Shown: positions 11,387 to 49,182, counted from the first letter of the stretch. The stretch: DNA of 49,182 nt from Snowella sp. (GCA_035285545.1 JAYKGY010000066.1:1-49182); one strand, 5' to 3'. Notes: a model not told the origin generated them from the letters alone. Program-made: numbers and translations.

Positions 11387-13879
11387 GTGAACAAAAAAAT
11401 CCGATTGGGCATGATAGGATTCGTAATCTTAGCTGCATTCATGGCGTTGTTTGCCCTACTGTTTACGCCGAAACCGCCCTTAGTCACTCAATCAGATTAT
11501 GCTATAGCACGTCAATTACCCGCCAATCAACTCAGTTACTATCCTCTCCAACAAAGCTTAGATCCTCAACATTACCGCGCGATCGCCGATTGGGTGGGCC
11601 GCTTAATCTTACCGAAAGTCGAAGATTATCAAAAAGATAACCCGAAAGATTGGGTCTGGTTAGAAATTTATCAAGCTCCTCCCCAATATCAAAATTTGAT
11701 CGGAAAAAAAGTGCGTTTAACCTGGCAGCCCTCTCCCGAATTAGACCGATACTTGAAATTAGTAACGACTGATATCAACTTTGATGAAGCCGCGACAGAA
11801 AGTGAAAAGCAAGGCAATGTCTTACCCCGTCGTTTGGATGGTCGTTCTCACGTCGGCCCCCTCCAAGCTTTAGCAGGAGCCAGAACCGATGACGATGTGG
11901 TGATCGGTTTTCCCACCGCCCAGGTGAGTGAAGCGGATCAGGCGACTCCGATTCTGAGGGTTAAACAGATGCCCTTAATGGTGACGGGCCGCTCGGTGGC
12001 CTTAGTGAAAATGCTAGGAGAAGCCCCGCCTCGATCTGCCCAAGATCTTCCGGCACAGTGTCCTGGCGCGGCTCCCTGTCCGAGTGAGTTGATGCGAGTT
12101 CAACATTACAATCCCAACACCCAAACCTTTGATGGAACGGAAGAAATTATTCGCATTCCCCAACAACCCAGAATTTCCGGCGATCGCTTTATTTCCACCC
12201 CACGCCAACTAGCGGAGTCTCCCGAAGGCAAAGATGGCTGGTATATCTATGGGGCCCAAGGCAAAGAGGGTTTATTTACCGTCCAAGCCCTAGCACCGCG
12301 ATCGCTCCTGCAACTGAAGCCCACTGACATCGTATTTGGCCAAAATTCGGGTACGGACTATATCAATCAGGGGAATTGGAAAAATACGCCTGAACGTAAA
12401 GGCACAGCCCAAAGCGTCTTAGTCGATCCGCGCAGTGATTCTCCTGAAATTGCCCTGAAATCTTGGCAAGAAGGCGATCGCGGTTTAGGAATTCATCTGT
12501 TTGGGGGAATTGGGGGTAAAAAAGGAGAATCCGTTTCAGGTGGCACCGTGACAGGACATTTTTCTTTCTTCTTTCCCCAAGTGGTACGTGATCCCTTTAC
12601 CAAGGAGTTGCAATGGCGTATTCCCTACTATCAAGTCTATGCCCACAATCCCCAGGGAATTTTATCGGGAAGTCAAAGTTTTGCGAACTATACGGGCAAC
12701 CTGCAACGGGGGTGGCTGAACTCTCGCCCGATTTCCAACGTTATTATCAAATCCGAGATTTTGAATGACTACGATTTTGGGGGCATTAAACTCTCTCCTT
12801 TGACGGAACTGCAACGACAACTGGAAGTGATGATGGCCCGTTATCGTACTGGGGATGGAAACGGCAATGCCAGTGTAACGCCGGCGGCCTCTTGTGTTCA
12901 GGATTCTAATCAAGCTCTCTACATTACTATCGAAGTTTTAAAGCAACAGGTCGCCGATAATCCCGCCATTCGCGATTGGCTACAAACCAATCCCACCGAT
13001 CCACAAACAAAACGCTTTGAAAAATTAATCCAACTCGGCGATCGCTTAACCCAAGTCTTAGCCCCCAGAGGCGTAATCCGTACCGATTGGAAAAATAATG
13101 CTCAAACTCTAGCTGGCACAACAGCCGATCCCAACAGTCGCTTTATGCAAAAAGACACCTTGGCCAATGCCCTATTAAGTTGGCAATCCATGTTACCCCG
13201 TGTCAGTCATGATGTGCTCAGCCAAATTTTTCTGGATTACGGTGCAACCCTCTGGTTTTTACGTCCTAACCAAGTCGGGGGAAAGATGCCCGAAATTTTG
13301 CCCCTAGCCCCCACCAATCTGTTTGGAGAAACCCCGTTCATTTCTGCGGCTCTACGTCGTATCCTTGCGTCTGTCATCTTGTTACCGACTGCTCAGGAGT
13401 GGGGAATTGCGGTTGCGTTATTAGGGCTTTATGCCGCGATCGCCATTCCGGTGGGCTTAAAATACCAATTTTTACAATGGCAACCGAGCCAGCAACCCTT
13501 ATGGCAATGGATCCTCCCATTGATAGTCTTATTCTTTAAGCCTGCCCTTTGGGAAGAATTGGTGTTTCGAGTCATTTTATTACCCTATCCCGATGGTTCC
13601 GTTTCTTGGCCCCTAAAAATTGGCTTAGCCCTCTTCAGCTTAGGACTTTTTGTGATCTATCACCCAATTAATGCTCGTTTTTCCTATAAAGCCGGTAATC
13701 CTCTCTTTTTTGATCCCCTTTTTCTAAGTTTAGCCGCCTTACTAGGACTCATTTGTACGATCGCTTATTTTGCAACAGGTTCATTGTGGGCGATCGCCTT
13801 GATTCATTGGGTCGTCGTCACCGTTTGGTTATTCGGATTTAATGGCAGATCTAAGCTATCTCAAAATCGTGTTATTTAA
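11387..13879 (+). CDS. Large CPBP (Abi/CAAX-protease) family membrane protein
   Basis: C-terminal TM block with WEELVFR, YHP and IHW motifs, preceded by an N-terminal anchor and an extracytoplasmic region of about 600 aa. Confidence 0.82.
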   Translation: MNKKIRLGMIGFVILAAFMALFALLFTPKPPLVTQSDYAIARQLPANQLSYYPLQQSLDPQHYRAIADWVGRLILPKVEDYQKDNPKDWVWLEIYQAPPQYQNLIGKKVRLTWQPSPELDRYLKLVTTDINFDEAATESEKQGNVLPRRLDGRSHVGPLQALAGARTDDDVVIGFPTAQVSEADQATPILRVKQMPLMVTGRSVALVKMLGEAPPRSAQDLPAQCPGAAPCPSELMRVQHYNPNTQTFDGTEEIIRIPQQPRISGDRFISTPRQLAESPEGKDGWYIYGAQGKEGLFTVQALAPRSLLQLKPTDIVFGQNSGTDYINQGNWKNTPERKGTAQSVLVDPRSDSPEIALKSWQEGDRGLGIHLFGGIGGKKGESVSGGTVTGHFSFFFPQVVRDPFTKELQWRIPYYQVYAHNPQGILSGSQSFANYTGNLQRGWLNSRPISNVIIKSEILNDYDFGGIKLSPLTELQRQLEVMMARYRTGDGNGNASVTPAASCVQDSNQALYITIEVLKQQVADNPAIRDWLQTNPTDPQTKRFEKLIQLGDRLTQVLAPRGVIRTDWKNNAQTLAGTTADPNSRFMQKDTLANALLSWQSMLPRVSHDVLSQIFLDYGATLWFLRPNQVGGKMPEILPLAPTNLFGETPFISAALRRILASVILLPTAQEWGIAVALLGLYAAIAIPVGLKYQFLQWQPSQQPLWQWILPLIVLFFKPALWEELVFRVILLPYPDGSVSWPLKIGLALFSLGLFVIYHPINARFSYKAGNPLFFDPLFLSLAALLGLICTIAYFATGSLWAIALIHWVVVTVWLFGFNGRSKLSQNRVI

Positions 13880-13962
13880 ATAAGCTTGGTGGACAAAAAT
13901 CCGCTTTGAGCAGTAAGATATAAGCATTTTTACTAACATTGCGTGATTGAGGAAATAAAGTT

Positions 13963-14340
13963 ATGGATCCGATGTCCATGATACTTGCTGCACTCGTAGC
14001 TGGAGCGACAAAAGCGGCTGGAGGAGTAGCCCAAGATGCTTATGATGGATTAAAAGCTCTGATCAAGCGTAAATTTGAGACCCAGGGAAAATCTGATTCA
14101 TCGGCTCTTCTCGATAAGTATGAGCAGAAACCTGAAAAAACCCGTGCACTGTTGGAAGATGAAATTGCCGAAGCAGGTCTTGATAAAGACGAAGAAATCA
14201 TCAAACTTGCTCAAGAATTAATGAAACAATTAAATCCCAAAGAAGCAGCAGAGGGAAAATTTAATATCGCAATTTCTGGGGGGACAGTTCAGGGTCTGAC
14301 ACAACAAAATACCGGTACCATCAACCAGACCTTCAACTAA
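13963..14340 (+). CDS. Bell-like helical protein with C-terminal N/Q/G-rich amyloid-type motif
   Basis: MDPMSMILAALVAGA...DAYDGLKALIKRKF N-terminus; ends ISGGTVQGLTQQNTGTINQTFN; GAGGA RBS. Confidence 0.75.
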   Translation: MDPMSMILAALVAGATKAAGGVAQDAYDGLKALIKRKFETQGKSDSSALLDKYEQKPEKTRALLEDEIAEAGLDKDEEIIKLAQELMKQLNPKEAAEGKFNIAISGGTVQGLTQQNTGTINQTFN

Positions 14341-14364
14341 ATTAAGGAATTTCTAGTAATCCCT

Positions 14365-16302
14365 ATGGAAAAGTCGGTTAATATTTCGGGGGGCAGCGTT
14401 CAAGGATTTGTCCAGGAAAATCATGGAACTGTCAATCAATACTTCATCACTCAAATGTCTGAGTTGATTGGTGGTTCTACATCACCCGAAAAATCTTTAA
14501 CTCAGGCAGAATATCGTCAAAGAAAAGTTTTACTCAGTAAGGTCAAGGAATATTGGATTCAAGGGGTTTTAGAAAAATCTTTGCAGGCTAATGCAATGAT
14601 TGATCTGGATTTAGAACAGCGATCAAATGCGGTTGAACGTCCATTTGCGGATTTTGGAGAAGCGTTTGGATCGTCCGAACAACCTTTGTCTGCTGGAAAA
14701 GATGCAACTGAAGTATTCCAACAAATCGGAGAAGGTAGAACGCTACTAATTTTGGGAGATCCCGGCTCTGGAAAAACCATCACTCTCCTAAAACTGGCTC
14801 AAAACTTAGTTAATCGTACTGAAGAAGATTTGAGTCAATTTATTCCAGTGGTATTAAACCTATCCTCTTGGGGAATTAAAGAATCAACAATTGATAATTG
14901 GATTGTAGAAGAGCTTTTTATCAAATACCAAGTTCCCAAAGAAATCGGCAAAAACTGGGTTGAGGAGCAGCAATTAATCCTCTTACTTGACGGGTTAGAT
15001 GAGGTCAGTTCCAATCGCAGAGAGGCTTGTGTTAAAGCCATCAATCAGTTTACCCAAACCCACTCTTTAACGGAGATGGTTGTCTGTAGTCGTATTGCTG
15101 ACTATGAGTTACTGGCTAATCGTTTAAAGTTGCGAGGCGCAATTTATATTCGATCCTTAACCCCTGAACAGATCGATCAATACTTAGAGAATGCTGGAGA
15201 ACCATTAGAAGGGGTTAAAACCTTACTGAGACAAGATACTGCATTACAAGAATTGGCTAAAGTTCCTCTAACTTTAAGTATTATTACCCTGGCTTATTAT
15301 GGTAAAAAAGCGCAAGAAATTCCTCAGACAGGTTCATTAGAAATTCGCCGTCAACATCTTTTCACTACTTATGTCGATCAGATGTTTCAACGTAAAAGGA
15401 TCAATCAGAAATACTCACGGGAAAAGACGGTTCAATGGTTAGCTTGGTTGGCTCAAAAAATGTCTAACCTTTCGCAGTCTATGTTTTTAATTGAGCAGAT
15501 ACAGCCAAGCTGGTTGCCCAACAAACTCGAAAATATTTTTTACCGACTGGGAATTGTTTTGGCTGGAACCTTAGTGATTGCTTTCATCTTATTCATCGGG
15601 ATGACTTTTGATTTAGGCAATATTCAGCTTAATCAATTGAATGTTATTGCTCTCAATATCTTTGCATGGGGTCTAGTTTTATTTGCCTATTTTGGCATAG
15701 GTGCAATTGAAATTAATACATTTGAATCATTGACATGGCCATGGAAGAAAAGTGGTAAAGAATTGCTAGCTGGTTTTGTAAAAGGACTCATCTGGGGTTT
15801 TGCGCTTTGTCCCTTTGCTATACTGTGGTGCGTCCGAATCTGTCGAGACGGAGCGACTCAAGAAAATATTATTGCTAGCATTATTCTCGGACTCGTTTTG
15901 GGGTTAATCATTGGCATAATTGATGCAGTAAAGGGGGCTGAAATAGAAACAAAAACTATCCCTAATCAAGGAATTAGGCAATCAGCGGTTAATGCAGGAA
16001 TCATCACGGTAATTAGTTGGATTATCTTGAGTGTCATGATTCTGAATTTTTTCCCTATGGGACTACGATCTGTCAGTTCTATAATCACTTGGGGTCTGAT
16101 TTTAGGCTTACTGTTTGGAGGCGGAATTGCAGTGATCCAGCATTACGGTCTACGATTTTTCCTTTGGATTAGAAATTATGTTCCCTTTAGTCTGGTTCAC
16201 TTACTCGACTATGCCAGTGAGCGCGTTTTTCTACGAAAAGTTGGTGGTGGTTACATTTTTATTCATCGGATGCTACTAGAATATTTTGCTAGGATGAAGT
16301 GA
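14365..16302 (+). CDS. NACHT NTPase (NLR-like) with N-terminal amyloid-type motif and C-terminal transmembrane region
   Basis: Walker A GDPGSGKT, Walker B LLLDGLDE, CSR sensor and PL motif, about 6 TM helices, terminal GGYIFIHRMLLEYFA. Confidence 0.88.
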   Translation: MEKSVNISGGSVQGFVQENHGTVNQYFITQMSELIGGSTSPEKSLTQAEYRQRKVLLSKVKEYWIQGVLEKSLQANAMIDLDLEQRSNAVERPFADFGEAFGSSEQPLSAGKDATEVFQQIGEGRTLLILGDPGSGKTITLLKLAQNLVNRTEEDLSQFIPVVLNLSSWGIKESTIDNWIVEELFIKYQVPKEIGKNWVEEQQLILLLDGLDEVSSNRREACVKAINQFTQTHSLTEMVVCSRIADYELLANRLKLRGAIYIRSLTPEQIDQYLENAGEPLEGVKTLLRQDTALQELAKVPLTLSIITLAYYGKKAQEIPQTGSLEIRRQHLFTTYVDQMFQRKRINQKYSREKTVQWLAWLAQKMSNLSQSMFLIEQIQPSWLPNKLENIFYRLGIVLAGTLVIAFILFIGMTFDLGNIQLNQLNVIALNIFAWGLVLFAYFGIGAIEINTFESLTWPWKKSGKELLAGFVKGLIWGFALCPFAILWCVRICRDGATQENIIASIILGLVLGLIIGIIDAVKGAEIETKTIPNQGIRQSAVNAGIITVISWIILSVMILNFFPMGLRSVSSIITWGLILGLLFGGGIAVIQHYGLRFFLWIRNYVPFSLVHLLDYASERVFLRKVGGGYIFIHRMLLEYFARMK

Positions 16303-23121: not shown

Positions 23122-24672
23122 ATGCTCCAAACTAGCCCAGTCACAGAAATTAGCGATAAGCCACCGGAACTCGAAGTGGTTAACATGAGTAAGATCTTCG
23201 GTTCTTTGGTCGCGCTGGATAATGTTTCCCTGAAAATGCCACCAGGAACATTCCATGCCTTGCTAGGAGAAAACGGAGCGGGCAAAAGCACCCTTGTTAA
23301 GTGCATTATGGGTTTTTACACGCCCTCTCATGGTGATATTTTAATTAACAAGCGATCGCGAGACATTAAAAATCCCCGTGATGCCCACCATTACGGCATT
23401 GGTATGGTCTATCAACACTTTACCTCTGTTCCTGCCATGACCGTTGCCGAAAATCTGGTTCTTTCTCGCTATGACAGCAAAAATGTTATTAACTGGAAAA
23501 CCGAATTAGAGCAGTTAAACGATTTCATGGCCAATGCTCCGTTTCAAGTGCCCTTAGACCGCACCATTAGCGAACTGGCGGCGGGACAGAAACAGAAGCT
23601 AGAAATTCTCAAGCAATTGTACTTAAACAGCAAGATTTTAATCTTAGATGAACCTACCTCGGTCTTAACGCCTGGAGAAGCCGATGAAATTTTAGGGTTA
23701 CTGAGGGAACAGGTAACGGACGAGAAATTAAGCGTTTTGATGATTAGCCATAAATTCCGCGAAGTCATGGCTTTTGCTGATGAGATTACCGTATTGCGTA
23801 AAGGCAAATTTGCAGGTCATGGCCAGGTTAAAGACCTAACCGTTGAAGACATGGCCAAAATGATGTTAGGCGAAGAGAAAAAGAATTTTGATGAACAGAT
23901 TGTTAAAGTTGCCGTCACGAAAACCCCTGAACCTGTCCTAGAAACCCTGGATTTGCATGGAAATAAGGATAATGGATTAGAAGCGGTTACCGCCCTAACG
24001 TTGCAGGTCTTTGGTGGAGAAATTGTGGGAATTGCGGGGGTTTCAGGAAATGGTCAACGGGAATTAGTCGAAATTTTGGCAGGGCAACGGGCCACAACGG
24101 AAGGGCAAATCCGCATTAACGGTCAAGTTTATCGCTCAACTCGCCAAGAAATGTTTAACCATCAAGTTTTTATTCTGCCAGAAGAACCCCTACGGAATGC
24201 TTGTGTTCCGACGATGAGCGTGGCGGAAAATATGGCCCTCAGAACTTTTGACCGTGCCCCCCAAGCCAAGGGAGTTTGGCTAATTTTAAGCGCAATTCGG
24301 GAAATGGCAAGCGGATTAATTCACACCTTTTCCGTGAAAACTCCTTCCCCAGAAACACCGATTAGTAATCTTTCGGGTGGAAACGTGCAACGGGCTGTTC
24401 TTGCTAGGGAATTATCTTCTCCTGATATTAAAGTTTTGATTGCCGCGAATCCCTGTTTTGGTTTAGATTTTGCCGCAGTCGAATTTATTCATCAACAGAT
24501 TTTAGAAGCGAGAAACCGAGGGGTAGCCGTGTTACTGGTCAGTGAAGATTTGGATGAATTATTAAAATTGTCGGATCGCATTATGGTGATGAGTGAGGGG
24601 CGATTGGTGTACGAAAGTGAAACGGAATCAGCCGATATTACGATTATTGGTCAAAAAATGGCAGGACATTAA
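23122..24672 (+). CDS. ABC transporter ATP-binding protein (two NBDs)
   Basis: [15 protein letters not shown] and [11 protein letters not shown] at 23122 preferred to TTG at 23080. Confidence 0.94.
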
Positions 24673-24674
24673 CT

Positions 24675-25340
24675 ATGATCACCATTAAAGCCCAACCCTA
24701 CGATTATGAAATTCCCGATCTACAAAGCCTTGCGCTGATCATTATTGATATGCAGCGAGATTTTTTAGAAGAAGGGGGATTTGGAGCCGCTTTGGGAAAT
24801 GATGTCAGCCCATTACGCGCCATTGTTCCCACTGTCAAAACCTTGTTAGAAACCTTTCGTCATCATCAATTACCGATTTTTCAAACTGTTGAAGGGCATC
24901 AACCTGATCTCTCTGACTGTCCACCGTCTAAATTAAAACGGGGTAATAGTTCTTTAAAAATTGGCGATCGCAGCACAATGGGACGAATTTTAATTTTAGG
25001 AGAAACGGGCAATCAAATTATTCCTGAATTAGAACCGCTACCCAATGAGATTATTATTTCTAAACCAGGCAAAGGGGCCTTTTATCAAACCGAATTGCAG
25101 ACTTATTTACAAGCGAAAGGGATTACTCACCTGATTTTTGCGGGTGTGACTACTGAAGTTTGCGTTCAGACGACCATGCGAGAAGCCAACGATCGCGGCT
25201 ATGAATGCTTATTAATTGAAGATGCAACCGCCAGTTATTTTCCCGAATTTAAGCAAGCAACCTTGGAAATGGTACGCGCTCAAGGCGGAATTGTCGGTTG
25301 GACGGCCTCTGCTAATAACGTGTTAGCTGCTTTAAGGTGA
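24675..25340 (+). CDS. trtA: Triuret hydrolase-like cysteine hydrolase
   Basis: [34 protein letters not shown] and AQGGIVGW match the TrtA subfamily as recalled; co-located with biuH. Confidence 0.75.
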
Positions 25341-25397
25341 TTTTTACAAATCTAAATTTTAGAAAAGCAAAAAAATTTAGGAATTTTCAGAGGATCA

Positions 25398-28300
25398 GTT
25401 TCAATCCCTCATAAGGCTTTGAATTAATTGCAATATTTAATCGAGTCTGGCGTTAGTGGTGCGGCTTTGTTTCAATCCCTCATAAGGCTTTGAATTAATT
25501 GCAATGTGTTACGCTTCCGTCTAGCCTCCGTTTTTTGTGGTTTCAATCCCTCATAAGGCTTTGAATTAATTGCAATATTAGCGTTTTTCTGGTGGTACTA
25601 AAAAAACTTTTTGTTTCAATCCCTCATAAGGCTTTGAATTAATTGCAATAACCGTTCTGGTACTGACCTGTAATGCCTTAGCTGTTTCAATCCCTCATAA
25701 GGCTTTGAATTAATTGCAATCAGTAACAGGTCTATTCGTGTAATATGGAGACTTGTTTCAATCCCTCATAAGGCTTTGAATTAATTGCAATAAGAAACCG
25801 TGATTCGGTTGCTCATTCTGGACTTTGTTTCAATCCCTCATAAGGCTTTGAATTAATTGCAATTGACCATTGGATTTCTCCTAAAAGTAGCTGCTCTGTT
25901 TCAATCCCTCATAAGGCTTTGAATTAATTGCAATGGGGGTGTGGAGCTTTGCGGTTTAAGACTTTACGTTTCAATCCCTCATAAGGCTTTGAATTAATTG
26001 CAATCTTTTGTCACCAGCCGCAAAAGCATAATATTCAATGTTTCAATCCCTCATAAGGCTTTGAATTAATTGCAATAGTTATCGTTGCCAGTAATGTCTT
26101 TCTCCATGTCAAGTTTCAATCCCTCATAAGGCTTTGAATTAATTGCAATGGTGATTGAGGCAACCGAGCCAAATACCCGTACTAGTTTCAATCCCTCATA
26201 AGGCTTTGAATTAATTGCAATACATCTCAGCTAGGGGAGGCAATTAAGACGGCTTTAGTTTCAATCCCTCATAAGGCTTTGAATTAATTGCAATGTAAAT
26301 GCTGACCATTGGTGCAAACTTTACGAATTGTTTCAATCCCTCATAAGGCTTTGAATTAATTGCAATGCTGAGCAAGCCGAACGGGAAAAAGAACGTTACA
26401 AGTTTCAATCCCTCATAAGGCTTTGAATTAATTGCAATTCGGGTTAGAGTCCAAATCAACCCCAATAGATTCGTTTCAATCCCTCATAAGGCTTTGAATT
26501 AATTGCAATCGAGGTTTATCCCACCAAAAGCCTGCTACATCTGCTGTTTCAATCCCTCATAAGGCTTTGAATTAATTGCAATCGTCAAATAGGGCTTTGT
26601 AGCAGTCGCTTTCGATGTTTCAATCCCTCATAAGGCTTTGAATTAATTGCAATTCGGGGTCGTCAACCTTTATAAAGCCAGAAACGTGTTTCAATCCCTC
26701 ATAAGGCTTTGAATTAATTGCAATCATGTTTTAAAAAATATGAAAGCTCATCTAAGCTACGTTTCAATCCCTCATAAGGCTTTGAATTAATTGCAATTTT
26801 TAGCTACTTCAGAGTCGGCAGGATATTCAGTGTTTCAATCCCTCATAAGGCTTTGAATTAATTGCAATGGCTGATGCGTTAACTTTTACGGATTAGATTA
26901 TTATGTTTCAATCCCTCATAAGGCTTTGAATTAATTGCAATACGGCCCGCCGCAAGGTCATTGTCCATGTTTAGGTAGGTTTCAATCCCTCATAAGGCTT
27001 TGAATTAATTGCAATATGGGATTGCCTGTCTTCTCGTCATTGCCAGATTGAATGTTTCAATCCCTCATAAGGCTTTGAATTAATTGCAATGAACCCATAG
27101 GCGATCGCCCAGGTGATCCTTACTGGTGTTTCAATCCCTCATAAGGCTTTGAATTAATTGCAATTTGTCAAGTCAAATAGTTATAATCTGGGCTTATAAG
27201 TTTCAATCCCTCATAAGGCTTTGAATTAATTGCAATCTATAGGGTGTGATTAGGCTTTGACTAACTACTGTTTCAATCCCTCATAAGGCTTTGAATTAAT
27301 TGCAATATAGCAGTGGTGTTTGATTATGATAATAAGGGCGTTTCAATCCCTCATAAGGCTTTGAATTAATTGCAATTCAATTCCATCAGCCATTACAGCT
27401 TTAGTGCCGACTTTGTTTCAATCCCTCATAAGGCTTTGAATTAATTGCAATTGCTGGCTCAGGTACAACGGGTGTGGCTGCAATCGTTTCAATCCCTCAT
27501 AAGGCTTTGAATTAATTGCAATTTATCACGCCTACGGGTTTGAGCCTTTTGACTTGTTTCAATCCCTCATAAGGCTTTGAATTAATTGCAATTTGATTAG
27601 GCGATCGCGGAGCAAGACCTGAATTCGTCCGTTTCAATCCCTCATAAGGCTTTGAATTAATTGCAATTTGAACAACCTTGTACGGGCCACTACTGTCATG
27701 CTCTGTTTCAATCCCTCATAAGGCTTTGAATTAATTGCAATAATCATGACCACTAACACTAAAATCATTCAAATTCTGTTTCAATCCCTCATAAGGCTTT
27801 GAATTAATTGCAATAATTTCTTCAAAGGTTGGAGTGTCTACCATTCGCGTTTCAATCCCTCATAAGGCTTTGAATTAATTGCAATTAGGACAACTACTAG
27901 GATTAGGAATAGATTGAGAGTTTCAATCCCTCATAAGGCTTTGAATTAATTGCAATTAACACGGAAGGAGGTAAGGAAGCCTGCTCTAAGTTTCAATCCC
28001 TCATAAGGCTTTGAATTAATTGCAATGATTATCTAGCCACGTACCTCCATCCAACTTTTGAAGTTTCAATCCCTCATAAGGCTTTGAATTAATTGCAATG
28101 CTGAGAATCGATAGTCAAAACATCATTAGTATCAAGTTTCAATCCCTCATAAGGCTTTGAATTAATTGCAATGTGTTCCGTTTAGTTCAACCTCAGCTAG
28201 AATTTATGTTTCAATCCCTCATAAGGCTTTGAATTAATTGCAATGGGGAGGCATCGAGTCACAGATTAGGGCTATTCGACTGTTTCAATCCCTCATAAGG

Positions 28301-29036
28301 CTTTGAATTAATTGCAATGCCAAACCGATCTTAATCCCTGCTATTAATTCAGGTTTCAATCCCTCATAAGGCTTTGAATTAATTGCAATGCGCAAGTTGT
28401 TCAAGCTGTCCATCTGCACGAATTCGTTTCAATCCCTCATAAGGCTTTGAATTAATTGCAATGCGTTTCCTGTAAGGAATTATCGTGGACAAAATTCAGT
28501 TTCAATCCCTCATAAGGCTTTGAATTAATTGCAATTAGAATCTAAAAATCGAATGTTCGCTTATACCAATGTTTCAATCCCTCATAAGGCTTTGAATTAA
28601 TTGCAATTGTCGAGTTCGATTATGTCCTATCTGCCAGTGGCGGTTTCAATCCCTCATAAGGCTTTGAATTAATTGCAATATGATTTAGAGATTGACCTAT
28701 ACGGTGAGACAAAGTTTCAATCCCTCATAAGGCTTTGAATTAATTGCAATTTGAAGAACGCGATCGCGTAATCTCCCAACTTGAGTTTCAATCCCTCATA
28801 AGGCTTTGAATTAATTGCAATTTGAGTTAATCCATGCTTGTAGCCTTCCACCATAGTTTCAATCCCTCATAAGGCTTTGAATTAATTGCAATATTAACAG
28901 CGACTACAAATATAGGAGGCTGTAAAGTTTCAATCCCTCATAAGGCTTTGAATTAATTGCAATTCATACGCACTAGCCCAGATTCCATCTCTCTCTTTGG
29001 TTTCAATCCCTCATAAGGCTTTGAATTAATTGCAAT
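25398..29036 (-). CRISPR. CRISPR array: 51 repeats of 37 nt and 50 spacers of 33-38 nt
   Basis: + strand repeat GTTTCAATCCCTCATAAGGCTTTGAATTAATTGCAAT, counted by hand from 25398 to the last copy at 29000, with no variant seen. The minus orientation ATTGCAATTAATTCAAAGCCTTATGAGGGATTGAAAC ends in the usual GAAAC, and the leader lies on the right. Confidence 0.99.
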
Positions 29037-29270
29037 CGCGGTTGCCTAGACAGCTTATCCAGTAATCTTTTTGAGCCAGCATTGCGCGGCTAATAGAATA
29101 ATTACTAGAATCAATTGCTACCTTAAGATGCGTGATTGCTAAAACCATTACTGTGTAAGGTGCGCGAAACAAAACGCATAAATTTATTCTTCAAACCCCT
29201 TCTAGATAAAAGTTTGAGAGAATTTTTATAGAAGAGTATATTTCTACACCCCCACCCCCGCGCATAAAAA
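29037..29270 (-). promoter_or_regulatory. CRISPR leader
   Basis: Non-coding stretch adjoining the 5' end of the array on the minus strand. The junction CGCGGTTGCCT (+) resembles cyanobacterial type I-D leaders (recalled, not searched). The boundary is approximate. Confidence 0.65.
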
Positions 29271-29287
29271 CTTCAAATAGATACCCC

Positions 29288-29454
29288 AAAAAGAAGGGAT
29301 TAATGAGTAATCTCTCATTGTGCGAATCTGTCTATTTCTAGACGACCCACTTCTTGCTGACAATGCACTTAGACATTCAAAGGCAAGCTTATACGGTCTT
29401 TCACCGTCGTTCCCCCTTGAAACTTGGGTACGGTGGCGAATAGCCATAGGGGGT
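29288..29454 (-). ncRNA. Candidate tracrRNA (about 167 nt)
   Basis: TATAAT at 29466-29461 (-), several stems, a split anti-repeat (GUUUCAA 29423-29417; AAUCCCU 29301-29295) and a terminal U5 run at 29292-29288. Confidence 0.7.
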
Positions 29455-29460
29455 ATCTTG

Positions 29461-29466
29461 ATTATA
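29461..29466 (-). promoter_or_regulatory. Putative -10 box (TATAAT) for the candidate tracrRNA
   Basis: Perfect TATAAT 7 nt before the first stem; no correctly spaced consensus -35. Confidence 0.45.
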
Positions 29467-29536
29467 TTTAGTTGTCAATGTTCAGAAAAATCTATGATTG
29501 CTATTATACCGAAAAAAATTACATTCGCATAGTTCT

Positions 29537-31009
29537 TTATTCATCTTTACAATCTAAATCGCCAAAAGCCTCCATTTCCATATTGATAGCCGCATTAAGA
29601 TCAGCATTAATACTGAGACCACAATTTAGACATTCAAAACTTGCTTGAGTTTCCCTATTTTCCTTCTCAGTATGCCCACATCGGGAACACCTTTGGGATG
29701 TATGCTTGGCATTTACTCTCACAACCTCACGATTAGGATGATTGCTTGCCTTACTTTCAATCATTGCCCTGATTTGACCGATACCTGCGTCCTGTATTGC
29801 TTTGTTTAATTGTGCTTTTCTCTTTCTTCCATTTTGCTCATAACCCTTACCATTTTCACTTTTTTTTGCTTTTGGTGCGCGTACCATATTGACAAGCCTT
29901 GTATCCTCTATCGCGATCGCATCATATTCATGAACAAGATGAGTTGAAACTTTTTGAGCATAATATTTACGACGATCAGCAATTTTTTTATGAACCTTCG
30001 CGATAAGTTGTTGCGTTTTTCTCCAATTTGACCCCCCTTTTTCCTGACGAGCTAAACTGCGCTGTAATCTTTGTAATCGCTTATAGTCTTGTTTTAAAAA
30101 TCTTGGATTAGGTACAGAACGACCATTGCTTAACGTTAAAAGGGTGACAATTCCAGGATCTATGCCGACTCTATTCTTATTATCAGGTAAAGGCTGAATA
30201 TCAGTATAAAAAACAAGATTTAAATAATAACCGTCTGCTTTTTTCGTTAAAGTTCCCGTTCGTGGCTGAATTTCACCCTTATTGCGATTATGTAAGCCTC
30301 GAAACTTAATTAAGCCAAATTCTTTTCCTAACAAAAGACAATCATTCGCTTCTGGATAAAATTTAATGCCCTCAGTTTGTTTATAAGGCAAAGAAGTGAC
30401 AGGAAACCGACGAGACTTAAATTTAAGCTTACGGGTATTATTTTTAGGGTCTTCATAACGTTTCCAAGCTTCTAAAAGGTGCATTGTAATACAAGCTTGT
30501 CTGATCTTCATGGGAATATCAATCAAACGCTCCACTTGCCATTGAGGAAGTAAACCAGAATTTTCAAGCCATTTGTTCGTATAACAATTATTGGTCGCGA
30601 TTTTTTTAGGATCTTCAACGTGCCAATAGGTTCGATAAGGAATCGAAAAATAACCATCTCGGTTGGTAATACGACACGCAAGAGCAAAAGTTTTATCTTT
30701 TTTACGCACTTCGTTTTCTTCTTTACTTAGCCAATCGCATTCTGGCAAAGCCTTTGTCCAGTGCCACTCAACAGGATAGGGATCAAAATTATCGAGTATA
30801 TTTAGGTCTGGAGCAATTTTGTTTAATTCTTTCGCACTCTTTTTGCGCCAAATTCTCTGTTGATTTTCGTAGAGCAGAGCAAGTCCCAAATTGTAGAGAG
30901 GTCTTAGGCTATTTGTCCATTTTTCAAATAGTGCTTGCTGAGGGCTGGTTAGATAAGCCTTAAGCTGAATTGTAAAGAGTGGCCTTTTTTCTGAGGTGGG
31001 GACTTCCAT
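29537..31009 (-). CDS. c2c8: Compact type V CRISPR effector, TnpB-derived (C2c8/V-U2-like)
   Basis: RuvC-I VGID284PG, RuvC-II IAIE368D, Zn ribbon C441xxC444...C460xxC463 and RuvC-III NAD470LNAA. It is 490 aa, adjacent and co-oriented with the array, with no tnpA. The TnpB/Cas12 fold is near certain; the subtype is inferred from size, host and context. Confidence 0.7.
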   Translation of the reverse strand: MEVPTSEKRPLFTIQLKAYLTSPQQALFEKWTNSLRPLYNLGLALLYENQQRIWRKKSAKELNKIAPDLNILDNFDPYPVEWHWTKALPECDWLSKEENEVRKKDKTFALACRITNRDGYFSIPYRTYWHVEDPKKIATNNCYTNKWLENSGLLPQWQVERLIDIPMKIRQACITMHLLEAWKRYEDPKNNTRKLKFKSRRFPVTSLPYKQTEGIKFYPEANDCLLLGKEFGLIKFRGLHNRNKGEIQPRTGTLTKKADGYYLNLVFYTDIQPLPDNKNRVGIDPGIVTLLTLSNGRSVPNPRFLKQDYKRLQRLQRSLARQEKGGSNWRKTQQLIAKVHKKIADRRKYYAQKVSTHLVHEYDAIAIEDTRLVNMVRAPKAKKSENGKGYEQNGRKRKAQLNKAIQDAGIGQIRAMIESKASNHPNREVVRVNAKHTSQRCSRCGHTEKENRETQASFECLNCGLSINADLNAAINMEMEAFGDLDCKDE

Positions 31010-31116
31010 TAAATAATATTTTTAAGTGCGATAAGTTAAACAACCCAATAAATTGAACCCATTTCATTTTAGCTTGACGGCTCAATTATTGCAAAAACTT
31101 AAACGCGATCGCGCGC

Positions 31117-31227
31117 CTACTTTCTCCACGGCCACCGAGTTCCCATTTCCGTCATAGCTGAGAAAATCAGATATAGCACTAGTAAAGCTACCCCTGTCAG
31201 AAACGGTAATAAATCTTCTTTCATCAT
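31117..31227 (-). CDS. Small 36-aa single-TM protein (not in ORF track)
   Basis: MMKEDLLPFLTGVALLVLYLIFSAMTEMGTRWPWRK*, a clean ORF with one hydrophobic helix and a basic/aromatic tail. Confidence 0.6.
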   Translation of the reverse strand: MMKEDLLPFLTGVALLVLYLIFSAMTEMGTRWPWRK

Positions 31228-31371
31228 TGTTATCTCTTACTGAAAATAGCTAATTTACACTGTTGGTTACTTCCTAGACAATTACTTTATTGAATTACAA
31301 GATCGCTCATATCATTGAGCATCGGTTCTATGATAAATAGAAGATTAATGAAGCAGAGCAACTAAGGAGCA

Positions 31372-32133
31372 ATGTTATCTATGGATGGGGAATTTTCGAC
31401 ATTAATGACGAATCCTTGGGGTCTTGCTGTTCTGTTAAATAGTTTGTTGTTGGCGATCGCGTTTATTTTGCCCAAGAAATTATTAACACCAATGGGTTAT
31501 CTCCATGCCTGGGTACTGGGGGTCATCGTCTGGGGAACCTTGGGATGGCGGGGTTATGCCGTTGTCATGTTCTATTTCTTGTTTGGTTCAGCCGTTACCC
31601 GTATAGGTATCAAGCAAAAGGAAGCCGAGGGCATTGCCGAAAAACGATCAGGGCAACGAGGGCCAGAAAATGTTTGGGGATCGGCCTTTACCGCTACCCT
31701 CTGTGCGTTATTAACCTTAGTCCTAGAACCCACTTGGCAGCCCTTGTTAATTTTGGGTTATGTGGCGAGCTTTAGCACCAAATTATCCGATACAACCGCC
31801 AGTGAAGTGGGGAAAGCCTACGGAAAACGCACTTTTTTAATTACGACCTTGCAACCTGTACCGAGAGGAACGGAAGGAGCCGTCAGCTTAGAAGGAACCT
31901 TAGCGGGAATCGTCGGATCGCTGTTAATTGCGGTGTTAGCTTGGGGTTTGGGGATGATTGATCTCTATGGGGTGGGTTGGTGCGCGATCGCTGCTTTTAT
32001 TGCTACCAATTTAGAAAGTGTGATCGGGGCAACCTTACAAAATCAATGGAACTGGTTAACCAACGAAGTCGTTAATGGGATTAATACCTTGATCGGGGCC
32101 GCGATCGCTATTGCGTTAGGAGCTTGGATTTAA
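31372..32133 (+). CDS. TIGR00297/DUF92 membrane protein (VTE6-like)
   Basis: GIAEKRSGQRGPENVWGSA, KLSDTTASEVGKAYG, GTEGAVSLEGT. Confidence 0.9.
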   Translation: MLSMDGEFSTLMTNPWGLAVLLNSLLLAIAFILPKKLLTPMGYLHAWVLGVIVWGTLGWRGYAVVMFYFLFGSAVTRIGIKQKEAEGIAEKRSGQRGPENVWGSAFTATLCALLTLVLEPTWQPLLILGYVASFSTKLSDTTASEVGKAYGKRTFLITTLQPVPRGTEGAVSLEGTLAGIVGSLLIAVLAWGLGMIDLYGVGWCAIAAFIATNLESVIGATLQNQWNWLTNEVVNGINTLIGAAIAIALGAWI

Positions 32134-32136
32134 ATA

Positions 32137-33135
32137 ATGACGAAACGGATGTTTGTGACAGGGGGAACGGGATTTGTTGGAGCCAATCTCATTCGTTTAT
32201 TGTTGGCCGAAGGTTATCACGTCAGAGCCTTAATTCGTCCCCAAAGTTGTTTCGATAATCTCGAAGGCTTAAATATCGAATGGGTGAAAGGAGATTTAAC
32301 AGATCGGAATTTGGCCGAAAAAATGCAGGGATGCGAGGGCTTATTCCATGTGGCGGCTCATTATTCTCTCTGGCAAAAAGACCGTGAGCAACTGTATCAA
32401 AGCAATGTGTTAGGGACTCGAAATATATTGGCTTCAGCAAAAAAAGCAGGGATTGAACGCTGCATTTATACCAGTTCCGTTGCCGCTATTGGGTTGGATA
32501 AAACAGGCGAACCTGTCGATGAACGCTTCCAAAGTCCTGTGGAAAATTTGGTGGGAGAATACAAAAAATCGAAGTATTGGGCAGAGCAAGAGGCGGTTAA
32601 AGCCGCTAAATCGGGGCAAGACGTAGTAATTGTTAACCCTAGCACTCCCATCGGCCCTTGGGATATTAAACCGACTCCGACGGGCGATATTATTCTGCGA
32701 TTTTTGCGGCGACAGATGCCTGCCTATGTGGAAACGGGGTTAAATCTCATTGATGTGCGGGATGTGGCCAAAGGTCATCTTCTTGCTTGGGAAAAGGGCA
32801 AAAGCGGAGATCGCTATATTCTGGGTCATCAAAACGTGAGTCTGAAAAATATGTTAGAAATGCTATCGGAGATCACAGGATTACCCGCCCCGAAAAATAC
32901 CGTTCCCTTATGGTTGCCCCTAACCGTTGCCTGGGTTGATGAAAATGTATTAGCTCCTTTGGGTAAAACGCCCTCTGTCCCCTTAGATGGGGTAAAAATG
33001 TCGGCCCATCCTATGTACTACGATGCCAGTAAAGCTGTGAGGGAATTAGGTTTGCCCCAATCTCCCATTCAGCAAGCTCTCAAAGATGCTGTCGAGTGGT
33101 TTATTCAACAGGGCTACGTTAAAGGAGATCGCTGA
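32137..33135 (+). CDS. hpnA: Hopanoid-associated sugar epimerase (extended SDR)
   Basis: VTGGTGFVG, HVAAHYSLW, YKKSK, NPSTPIGPWDIKPTPTG. Confidence 0.88.
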   Translation: MTKRMFVTGGTGFVGANLIRLLLAEGYHVRALIRPQSCFDNLEGLNIEWVKGDLTDRNLAEKMQGCEGLFHVAAHYSLWQKDREQLYQSNVLGTRNILASAKKAGIERCIYTSSVAAIGLDKTGEPVDERFQSPVENLVGEYKKSKYWAEQEAVKAAKSGQDVVIVNPSTPIGPWDIKPTPTGDIILRFLRRQMPAYVETGLNLIDVRDVAKGHLLAWEKGKSGDRYILGHQNVSLKNMLEMLSEITGLPAPKNTVPLWLPLTVAWVDENVLAPLGKTPSVPLDGVKMSAHPMYYDASKAVRELGLPQSPIQQALKDAVEWFIQQGYVKGDR

Positions 33136-43656: not shown

Positions 43657-44220
43657 ATGGTACAAACCCCTTCTAAAATCTTAACCCTAGAAGCCTTTCT
43701 AGCTACTCCTGAAACTAAACCTGCCAGTGAATATATTGACGGTAAAATCATTCAAAAACCTATGCCTCAAGGTGAACATAGTACTATTCAAGGTGAATTA
43801 CTGATTGCCATTAATGCAGTTACTAAACCTCAAAAAATAGCACGAGCTTTTCCAGAACTACGATGTATTTTTGCCAATAGAGCGATTGTTCCAGATATTG
43901 CTGTTTTTTGCTGGGATAGGATTCCTCGTAATGAAGCGGGAGGGATTGCTAATCTTTTTGCGATCGCGCCTGACTGGATCATTGAAATTCTTTCTCCTGA
44001 ACAAAGTTCAACTCAAGTGATTGCTAAAATTCTCCATAGCCTCAAGCATGGAACCCAACTCGGTTGGTTAATTGATCCCAAGGAAAAAGCTATCTTTATT
44101 TTTTACCCTAATCAATCTCTCGACTGGATTGATCAACCAGAGCAATTACTTCCTGTCCCAGATTTTGCCAGTAATTTACAACTAACGTTAGAAGACATTT
44201 TTAATTGGTTATTAGAATAA
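43657..44220 (+). CDS. Uma2-family endonuclease
   Basis: PETKPASEYIDG, VPDIAV, PDWIIEILSP, GWLIDP. Confidence 0.92.
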   Translation: MVQTPSKILTLEAFLATPETKPASEYIDGKIIQKPMPQGEHSTIQGELLIAINAVTKPQKIARAFPELRCIFANRAIVPDIAVFCWDRIPRNEAGGIANLFAIAPDWIIEILSPEQSSTQVIAKILHSLKHGTQLGWLIDPKEKAIFIFYPNQSLDWIDQPEQLLPVPDFASNLQLTLEDIFNWLLE

Positions 44221-48258: not shown

Positions 48259-48453
48259 ATGAGCATTACGATTCTTAAAGAGGGCGATACCGTTCGCCTA
48301 CTACAGAGTGATATCCAAATTCCAGAAGGCGAACCCATTATTCTATTTACAAAAGAAGAAATGATCCAGCAAATCCAAGATGAATGGGTCAACTTACAAA
48401 TGCCCAGTTTTGTTCGGGATGATGAAGATGAAGATGGGGAGGAATTATTTTGA
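48259..48453 (+). CDS. Small acidic protein, putative antitoxin
   Basis: 64 aa with a very acidic C-terminus (DDEDEDGEELF). Its stop overlaps the start of the MazF-like ORF (TTGA). Confidence 0.6.
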   Translation: MSITILKEGDTVRLLQSDIQIPEGEPIILFTKEEMIQQIQDEWVNLQMPSFVRDDEDEDGEELF

Positions 48454-49182
48454 ATTTACAAGGTCAATTAGTCTATATCGTCTGGCCTTTTGCTGAAATA
48501 GAAAGCAGTAAAAAACGTCCTGCATTAATCTTAACCGAACCTGATTCCCAGGGAGATATCACTTTATTAAAGATCACGGGTAAGAGCAACTATGAAAATA
48601 GTCTTCCAATTACGCAAAAAGATTTAGCGTCTGGAATCCTTAAAAAAGACTCTTACATTCGTATTGATCGAATTATTTCTGTTCATCAATCTCAAATAAA
48701 AGGACTAGGAATTCAACTAAAATCTGAAAAATTAGCCGAAGTGCACCGTGCTTTGGTTTTATTAAATACCCGTCAATTTTCTCACCTCAAGCATCTTCAA
48801 AATAGACCAGCAATTGATCCTTTACGTCCCACTTTTTCAGAGGGAAGTGTTCCCTATGCAGGACGAGTATTCACTAGTGAGGAAGTAGAAGCGGCCATTT
48901 CTACTACTTTAGATTTTTGGTTAACCTTAGGTGTTGAAGGAGCAGCCTTTGAGAAAGAATTAGCTACTTTTTTAGGTGTTCATTACTCTTTAGCTGTTAA
49001 TTCAGGATCATCCGCTAATTTAATCGCCTTGAGTGCGTTAACTTCTCCTTTGATTGAAGAATCTAGAAGACTTAAAAAAGGAGATGAGGTTATTACCTGT
49101 GCCGCAGGATTTCCAACAACAGTCTCTCCAATCATTCAAAATGGCTGTATCCCAGTTTTTATTGATAATGACCCTGTTACCA
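48450..49182 (+). CDS. rfbH: Fusion of a MazF/PemK-like domain and RfbH (CDP-4-keto-6-deoxyglucose 3-dehydratase-like, DegT family), 3'-partial
   Basis: Translated by hand from TTG 48450 with no stop to the window end: MNLQGQLVYIVWPFAEIESSKKRPALIL...ITG...GILKKDSYIRIDRI...LKSEKLAEV, then VPYAGRVF...LDFWLTLG...VNSGSSANL...GDEVITCAAGFPTTVSPIIQNG. Confidence 0.85.
   Translation, partial: MNLQGQLVYIVWPFAEIESSKKRPALILTEPDSQGDITLLKITGKSNYENSLPITQKDLASGILKKDSYIRIDRIISVHQSQIKGLGIQLKSEKLAEVHRALVLLNTRQFSHLKHLQNRPAIDPLRPTFSEGSVPYAGRVFTSEEVEAAISTTLDFWLTLGVEGAAFEKELATFLGVHYSLAVNSGSSANLIALSALTSPLIEESRRLKKGDEVITCAAGFPTTVSPIIQNGCIPVFIDNDPVT

Follow-up and report, generated by a model that had tools for sequence, protein, structure and literature searches.

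The stretch of DNA analysed here (49,182 nucleotides from Snowella sp., GCA_035285545.1 JAYKGY010000066.1:1-49182; "the window" below) carries on its minus strand a compact locus that comprises, in this order, a gene for a 490-aa TnpB-derived protein (c2c8), a candidate trans-activating RNA (tracrRNA), a leader, and a CRISPR array. Taken together, these elements likely constitute a type V-U2 (C2c8) CRISPR-Cas system (Table 1). The locus is a further member of this known, catalogued subtype and not a new kind of system, since its protein passes the C2c8 model and groups with a protein named Rippkaea orientalis PCC 8801 by its source. An earlier reading made from the sequence alone (the sequence-only reading) had described a minimal type V locus, with a TnpB-like gene co-oriented with a 51-repeat array 500 bp downstream, and had seen no tnpA, cas1, cas2, cas4, cas6 or Tn7-like gene in the window. 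All of this was borne out: the stop codon of c2c8 (29537) is separated from the first repeat (29036) by 500 nt, the array lies downstream on the same strand, and Pfam analysis of all open reading frames (ORFs) of at least 100 aa in the window (40 rows, one of which is a nested alternative start of another) revealed none of these genes. The 51 repeats do not differ from one another, even at the two ends of the array, while the 50 spacers are all different and range from 33 to 38 nt (mean 35.0). No further copy of the repeat with up to three mismatches was found anywhere in the 4.16-Mb genome, and in Rfam the repeats match CRISPR-DR5 on the minus strand below the threshold (31.4 bits vs the gathering score of 40). 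The genes that flank the locus include a cyanobacterial PetH/CpcD reductase and a phosphoribulokinase, and the host is therefore a cyanobacterium.

In Pfam, the 490-aa protein (P0001) matches OrfB_IS605 (E 1.7e-26) and the Cas12f1-like_TNB zinc ribbon (E 1.4e-18). Among NCBIfam models it is assigned to NF038192, V_cas_c2c8 (type V-U2), with an E-value of 2.3e-126 and 422.6 bits against a cut-off of 350, in a match that spans residues 13-451 of the protein and positions 2-457 of the 457 in the model. The protein is thus of exactly the subtype that the sequence-only reading had mentioned. The models of TnpB proteins from insertion sequences (IS) remain below their cut-offs (IS200_TnpB, 174.5 bits vs 425; IS607_TnpB, 102.7 bits vs 350), as does that of Cas12f2 (72.5 bits vs 450). 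Cas12k, judged earlier not to fit, indeed does not: its model NF038191 gives no match to P0001, the RuvC triad is intact and there are no adjacent Tn7 genes. In an alignment of 10 family sequences D284 and E368 are invariant and D470 nearly so, and in the zinc ribbon C441 is invariant, with C444, C460 and C463 nearly invariant. The catalytic residues and the four-cysteine ribbon of the sequence-only reading therefore hold in the family alignment. Across 32 family members the triad is intact and nearly invariant, and the protein shows the arrangement typical of type V effectors, i.e. a RuvC-like D..E..D triad interrupted by a zinc finger. Judging from these intact motifs, C2c8 of the window is predicted to be catalytically active.

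The closest full-length relatives of P0001 are 92% (P0002), 61% (P0003, the Rippkaea protein) and 44% (P0005) identical to it, followed by a group at about 33% identity. In a quick maximum-likelihood tree of 55 proteins, with several long branches and with support given by the Shimodaira-Hasegawa-like approximate likelihood ratio test (SH-aLRT) without bootstrap, the C2c8-like group is split from six ordinary TnpBs at 99%, and the window protein forms a clade with P0002, the protein of locus L125 and P0005 at 100%. Profile-based and phylogenetic placement, proposed at the outset as a check, accordingly put the protein over the C2c8 cut-off, under those of the IS TnpBs and Cas12f2, and apart from the TnpBs. 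c2c8 is present in a single copy, and only two further TnpB-like matches occur in the genome, at 36% and 32% identity to it over the C-terminal half. The expansion of the N-terminal part noted earlier is real, as residues 236-482 of P0001 align to residues 139-373 of ISDra2 TnpB, which leaves about 97 extra residues before the alignable part. Confidence in the AlphaFold model (mean predicted local distance difference test score, pLDDT, 81.1; predicted TM-score, pTM, 0.72) is low for residues 77-94 and 105-125. Foldseek retrieved Cas12p as the best match (TMq 0.65), followed by ISFba1 and ISDra2 TnpB, Cas12f, LaTranC and Fanzor2, with TM-scores of 0.72-0.74 for ISFba1 and ISDra2 when normalised to the TnpB chain. 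A search of the PDB with the family profile also placed Cas12p first (9jfs, E 3.7e-75).

Beyond the gene, the window and L125, with proteins 61% identical, share a conserved stretch of about 180 nt that begins some 80 nt past the stop codon. Seven of the 31 predicted base pairs have changed on both sides with the pairing kept, e.g. in a hairpin for which the window has AAUGAG-AGAUUA-CUCAUU and L125 has AGCCUG-AGAUUA-CAGGCU. The minus-strand RNA of 29259-29467 folds with a minimum free energy of -63.2 kcal/mol (z -3.58, none of 200 shuffled sequences being as stable; z -2.47 for the plus strand). The predicted structure is closed by a helix between AGAUACCCC (29458-29450) and GGGGUAUCU (29287-29279), the counterpart of which in L125 is formed by AGAUCCCCU and AGGGGAUCU. 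The tracrRNA candidate of the sequence-only reading (29288-29454) lies within this conserved structured stretch (29279-29458). The metatranscriptome run X3 contains one contig of 209 nt, identical to 29259-29467 with 0 differences, at a depth of 2.7; contigs of this run cover neither the c2c8 ORF nor the leader, and it is uninformative about them. In the DNA run X2, which represents a 97%-identical strain with the same repeat at the array junction, seven of the differences listed fall into the tracrRNA stretch. Mapped by hand onto the predicted fold, five of them are in loops or unpaired positions and two leave the pairing intact (C-G to U-G and U-G to U-A).

Two segments of this RNA are complementary to the repeat. 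The first of them, GUUUCAA, complements the repeat's final 7 nt (UUGAAAC), with which it is predicted to form a pseudoknot beside the guide, while the second, UUAAUCCCUU, can form 10 pairs (two of them G-U) with the repeat segment GAGGGAUUGA. Covariation of both segments with the repeat is seen at homologous positions, across three repeat types for anti-repeat 1 and four for anti-repeat 2, as read by eye in a few clades. At the former, repeat AAAC is accompanied by GUUU (window and L125), AAAG by CUUU (L124), and CAAG by CUUG (L018, L215 and L225). At the latter, GGGATTG is accompanied by AATCCC (window, L125 and L126), GGGACTG by CAGTCCC (L124), GGTTAATTG by CAATTAACC (L018), and TTGATTG by CAATCAA (L017). 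Several other approaches to the RNA gave little. Rfam returned no match to a tracrRNA family, and a scan for promoters and terminators found nothing decisive for the tracrRNA. TATAAT at 29466-29461 is unlikely to be its -10 box, because it lies inside the RNA contig. A nhmmer profile built from the two-sequence alignment A2 gave marginal matches at a similar offset in L217, L214, L216 and L130 (E 0.08-0.3), which we rejected as too weak.

Table 1. Features of the C2c8 locus, in coordinates of the window
Feature	Position	Strand	Basis or remark
c2c8 gene, 490 aa, TnpB-derived effector	29537..31009	-	ORF, Pfam, NCBIfam, alignment, tree, model, fold search
CRISPR array, 51 identical 37-nt repeats and 50 unique spacers	25398..29036	-	minus-strand form of the repeat ends GGGATTGAAAC
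Leader	29037..29258	-	boxes CGCGCACCTTA (29166-29156) and CGCGCAA (29088-29082), common to type I-D array leaders
Candidate tracrRNA	29259..29467	-	structured core 29279-29458; closing helix AGAUACCCC/GGGGUAUCU
Candidate anti-repeat 1 (GUUUCAA)	29417..29423	-	hairpin loop ahead of conserved GGGAACG motif
Candidate anti-repeat 2 (UUAAUCCCUU)	29294..29303	-	unpaired in predicted fold
Promoter-like site TTGCAA, 17 nt, TAAAAT, upstream of c2c8	31066..31095	-	consensus match only
Island of about 6 kb with the whole system	25343..31323	.	boundaries read from sequence comparison with G456

These features suggest a mode of action in which the TnpB-derived protein would bind a tracrRNA of about 180-210 nt, encoded just past its own stop codon, which in turn would pair with the 3' part of each 37-nt repeat via the two anti-repeats. 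The loop GUUUCAA would form a pseudoknot with the last bases ahead of the guide, and the single-stranded UUAAUCCCUU would supply the second pairing between the tracrRNA and the repeat. The tracrRNA and the CRISPR RNA (crRNA), with its 3' tag derived from the repeat, would then act as a dual guide that replaces the single omega-RNA of TnpB. Such a dual-RNA guide is proposed because anti-repeat 1 corresponds to the same pseudoknot as described for Cas12p. The complex may be expected to find double-stranded DNA (dsDNA) that matches the spacer and is flanked by a protospacer-adjacent motif (PAM), and the intact RuvC site would cut it, as in TnpB, Cas12f and Cas12p. By analogy with these enzymes, RNA binding and maturation of crRNAs would thus lead to PAM-dependent DNA cleavage, presumably in defence.

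The association between gene and array was examined among the relatives of C2c8, which have a sparse and patchy distribution. Genes over the C2c8 cut-off were found in six of 401 sampled genomes of the phylum, in 19 of 401 genomes of the order and in seven of 89 genomes of the family, and in none of five other genomes of the same genus. Of the 22 genomes with such a gene, 20 could be evaluated, after exclusion of a 1.7-kb contig and a short-flanked locus. An adjacent array is present in 11 of these 20 (in one, G410, it is weak, with four degenerate copies), and in 10 of the 11 it is co-oriented and downstream, 264-621 nt past the end of the model match, except for a distance of 1302 nt in G204, where cas2 lies between gene and array. 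In the remaining one, G172, the array lies upstream in divergent orientation, and two ORFs make up the split gene. In the genome collection, arrays accompany four of six evaluable cyanobacterial full-length matches, and full-length viral or metagenomic relatives have a downstream array in 13 of 23, with one more doubtful. Among 136 loci of partial-match TnpBs, none has an array of at least four copies; under a looser criterion of three copies, 5 of 73 such loci gave a possible signal of 3-4 copies. Adjacency to an array is thus common and not universal in the family, and it is scattered on the tree (10 changes). The array-adjacency of orthologues, which had been suggested as a test of the system, holds for the 11 genomes and not for the other nine.

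The array-less nine (L313-L321, in G575, G660, G670, G602, G680, G732, G707, G699 and G492) are single-copy genes that score 367-619 bits on the C2c8 model, and six of them form one tight clade. Many relatives (L126, L017, L018, L211, L215 and others) have long C-terminal tails of c2c8 that extend into the RNA scaffold, with a QLxxWD motif (e.g. QLTIWD) at their end, just before or within the first repeat; this tail is entirely absent from the window protein and from L125.

The array itself has the hallmarks of another CRISPR type. G453, a genome of the same genus without a c2c8 gene over the cut-off, has a repeat identical to that of the window at 31 of 37 positions, in an array that directly follows cas3, a 1192-aa gene (no family match), csc2, a 219-aa gene, cas6, cas4, cas1 and cas2. 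In G437 the repeat is identical at 29 of 37 positions and the array follows cas3, cas6, cas4, cas1 and cas2. The leader boxes CGCGCACCTTA and CGCGCA are common to the leaders between cas2 and the array in both genomes, at similar distances from the first repeat, and the same leader box occurs in other C2c8 loci. Repeat and leader of the window therefore have the type I-D format. In G204 (L126, G204:C209:1800-14949), c2c8 is located between cas6 and cas2 of an I-D operon, ahead of an array of 110 repeats, with degenerate repeat-like pieces inside and after the 3' tail of the gene; the arrangement looks like an insertion into the I-D operon that replaced cas4-cas1. According to the available part of a preprint by other authors, near-identical spacers occur among Cas12k, I-D, III and V-U2 arrays, and shared adaptation by I-D modules was proposed.

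In the source genome (G000, 95.38% complete, in 151 contigs) we found none of Cas1, Cas2, Cas4, Cas6, Csc2 and Cmr2, an absence that the incompleteness and fragmentation of the assembly keep short of proof; csc2, cas6, cas4, cas1 and cas2, the set expected with a type I-D system, are thus missing from G000 as assembled. The only other array of the genome is one of 14 repeats in a Cas12k locus on a different contig, and comparison of its 13 spacers with the 50 of the window revealed none in common. The array and leader were probably filled by an I-D Cas1-Cas2-Cas4 module, as their sequence format suggests, and because this module was not found in the genome, the 50 spacers probably represent an inherited set that no longer grows. 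The sequence-only reading had taken the long, uniform array to imply ongoing use and acquisition of spacers in trans. Acquisition in trans is plausible as history; as an ongoing process it is unsupported here, since no cas1, cas2, cas4, cas6, csc2 or cmr2 was found in the 95%-complete genome and no spacer is shared with the other array. That reading was therefore right in kind and overstated in novelty and in ongoing adaptation, so that it is partly supported. We tentatively suggest, as an idea with somewhat less than an even chance of being correct, that a class 2 effector operates on a class 1 array: C2c8 and its tracrRNA would have taken over an I-D array and leader, would mature repeats of the Cas6 format through their own tracrRNA, and would keep a memory of 50 spacers working after the loss of the I-D and adaptation genes. 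The Cas12k locus (L012, G000 C94:2740-6113) comprises a Cas12k gene (NF038191, 935.8 bits) with the 14-repeat array and is flanked by genes of IS701-like transposases and a type I restriction-modification set. The source genome thus harbours two class 2 effectors derived from TnpB, and no adaptation genes were found in it.

The whole system is contained in an island. In G456, a genome of the same genus, the flanking sequences lie 195 bp apart, compared with 6017 bp in the window; homology extends over 23500-25346 of the window on the left (86% identity) and 31364-33100 on the right (89%), and breaks at about 25343 and 31323. As read from this alignment, the locus is an insertion or deletion of about 6 kb relative to its congener. 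No integrase or transposase genes were found inside the island. The spacers were compared with phages, plasmids, 89 genomes of the family and the own genome, and this gave nothing beyond matches between repeats and chance matches of 16-18 nt, so no PAM could be derived. A lone sequence that resembles the repeat family and ends TAGGGATTGAAAC occurs in Cyanophage MaMV-DH01 (OP394178.1, about 163595-163636; L322, about 300-342), between two hypothetical phage genes; no array accompanies it, and it may be either a remnant or a decoy of the RNA anti-CRISPR type.

Several observations weigh against a V-U2 system that works as proposed above. Nine of the 20 evaluable relatives over the cut-off have no array within about 4-9 kb per side, hence use of an array is not universal in the family, and the array of the window could have been made for another effector, as its repeat is of the Cas6-processed type. 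The count of stretches complementary to the repeat tail (with a threshold that the 7-bp anti-repeat 2 of L125 does not reach) was not above that in shuffled controls. Duplex energies between the repeat and intergenic regions were no better than with shuffled repeats and were therefore dropped as a criterion, which leaves the case for the tracrRNA to homologous position and covariation seen by eye in a few clades. The X3 contig is a single one of low depth from one library that indicates neither the strand nor the true ends of the RNA, and DNA can contaminate RNA libraries. Protospacers were not found in any of the phages, plasmids and genomes searched. Finally, no experiments on any C2c8 protein were found in the literature searched, and the activity, the PAM and the need for a tracrRNA are extrapolated from related systems.

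Three other explanations of the locus have to be weighed against a working V-U2 system. The array could be a relic of a type I-D system that has lost its cas genes, with the TnpB-derived gene as a bystander and the array used by nothing in the cell. The I-D type of the repeat and leader, the failure to find adaptation, Cas6 and I-D effector genes in the genome, the position of c2c8 between cas6 and cas2 of the I-D operon in G204, and the lack of any spacer target found all agree with it. However, the identity of all 51 repeats, up to both ends, would be unexpected for a decaying array, the same arrangement of gene and array recurs in 10 of 11 array-bearing genomes, the anti-repeats beside the gene fit the repeat of the locus itself and change in concert with it, and the RuvC and zinc residues are conserved; we therefore regard a relic as unlikely. 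Somewhat less probable still is a guided binder or regulator rather than a cutter, which would block transcription or replication as Cas12m does, or perform another task outside defence. The authors who described the cyanophage CL131 locus proposed, in the part of their paper available, a regulatory role for V-U effectors with regard to their small size (PMC6293099), Cas12m structures are among the fold matches, and no phage-matching spacers were found. On the other hand, the triad of C2c8 is intact and nearly invariant in 32 family members, whereas loss or alteration of the RuvC site is described for the Cas12m and Cas12k lineages in the accessible part of a 2023 survey of TnpB and Cas12 (PMC10691335), and 50 diverse spacers with no match in the own genome fit defence better than regulation of own genes.

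The remaining explanation, a chance proximity of an unrelated array to an ordinary TnpB of the IS200/IS605 or IS607 kind with its omega-RNA, is highly improbable and already contradicted by the data. It is in line with the Pfam assignment to OrfB_IS605 and with the sub-threshold matches to the IS200_TnpB (174.5/425) and IS607_TnpB (102.7/350) models. Against it, the gene scores under both these cut-offs and over that of C2c8, it is present in one copy, the window lacks tnpA and the island any transposase gene, and arrays of at least four copies were seen at none of the 136 partial-match TnpB loci. A mobile element of this kind was rejected on the grounds of the single copy, the missing tnpA in the window and the IS model scores.

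Type V-U2, with its effector C2c8, was reportedly named in a 2017 survey of class 2 systems. A 2024 review, in the part available, lists Cyanothece as the source of V-U2/C2c8, with no size or PAM given, and presents it as the only one of the five original V-U groups still without a Cas12 letter or PAM, while the accessible part of a 2024 paper states that the 2020 classification put V-U2 in V-F. The system of the window agrees with V-U2 in that it passes the C2c8 model, is hosted by a cyanobacterium, and combines a small TnpB-like effector and an array with no other cas genes and a 37-nt repeat. It differs from many relatives by the lack of the long C-terminal tail and by an RNA scaffold with no overlap with the ORF. 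Cyanophage vB_AphaS-CL131 carries a locus described as an example of V-U2 (PMC6293099), and the available part of that paper reports no tracrRNA for it, whereas a tracrRNA is supported in the window. No feature excludes membership in V-U2.

A near relative, already characterised both biochemically and structurally, is Cas12p ("Cas12 hacker", type V-P; PDB 9jfs, 9jg3), the best match among solved structures by both profile and fold. As far as the accessible part of its description goes (bioRxiv 10.1101/2025.01.20.633832), Cas12p uses a 37-nt repeat, a 185-nt tracrRNA and a GTN PAM, cleaves dsDNA and requires the host thioredoxin, and the last four repeat bases AAAC form a pseudoknot with GUUU of the tracrRNA. 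The window resembles it in the 37-nt repeat that ends AAAC, the long tracrRNA and the predicted AAAC:GUUU pseudoknot beside the guide, as well as in a basic insertion after RuvC-II that is common to C2c8 and Cas12p and absent from ISDra2 TnpB. However, Cas12p comprises 741 aa in the solved chain, with a large thioredoxin-binding REC part, and comes from phage-like metagenome-assembled genomes, while P0001, about 250 residues shorter, aligns to it on its own over residues 327-478 only (E 1.7e-20). With TnpB and its omega-RNA (ISDra2; PDB 8bf8, 8h1j, 8exa) C2c8 shares the core of WED, REC, RuvC and zinc finger, and a guide scaffold encoded directly 3' of the gene. In contrast to TnpB, it is not mobile and has a single copy, no TnpA in the window, a guide apparently split into tracrRNA and array-derived crRNAs, an N-terminal part longer by about 97 residues and an additional basic loop; transposon ends were not seen, although no specific search for them was made. 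Cas12k, the effector of CRISPR-associated transposons of type V-K, is likewise cyanobacterial and TnpB-derived, has 37-nt repeats with similar ends and a tracrRNA between gene and array, and lacks own adaptation genes, and in the available part of 10.1101/2021.02.06.429022 I-D adaptation in trans was proposed for it. Its RuvC site is inactive and it works with Tn7-like genes, whereas P0001 has the triad and no Tn7 neighbours. Cas12f (V-F) and Cas12n (V-N) are also miniature tracrRNA-dependent type V nucleases near TnpB, but Cas12f chains match C2c8 by sequence over only about 70-90 C-terminal residues.

The locus presents a clean test case for V-U2, with a 490-aa nuclease free of the tail, a tracrRNA wholly outside the ORF and a uniform 37-nt repeat, and therefore a guide RNA can be directly designed and tested for PAM and cleavage. 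The I-D-format array, in a genome in which no adaptation gene was found, bears on how TnpB-derived effectors acquire arrays and on whether class 2 systems of cyanobacteria (V-K, V-U2) need I-D machinery. If the takeover of a class 1 array suggested above is true, V-U2 would be a natural case of one CRISPR type that inherits, and depends on, the memory bank of another.

Some further features of the window deserve mention. The promoter-like site upstream of c2c8 is weak, because the scan gave 11 sites where 7.4 are expected. Just upstream of this region, a minus-strand ORF (31117-31227) encodes a hydrophobic peptide of 36 aa with no Pfam match, and a hairpin resembling a terminator (31119-31100) comes after it; all 218 nt of 31087-31304, within which the ORF lies, are missing from the 97%-identical strain of X2. 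A possible defence pair lies at 11387-16302, upstream of a metabolic operon, and comprises an 830-aa CAAX-protease (Rce1-like) protein and a 645-aa NACHT/STAND NTPase that weakly matches antiphage families. At the end of the window, on the plus strand, an ORF that leaves it (48450-49181) has a PemK/MazF-like toxin domain together with the beginning of a DegT aminotransferase, and may represent two genes; near it, a gene of the Uma2 endonuclease family is located at 43657-44220 on the plus strand.

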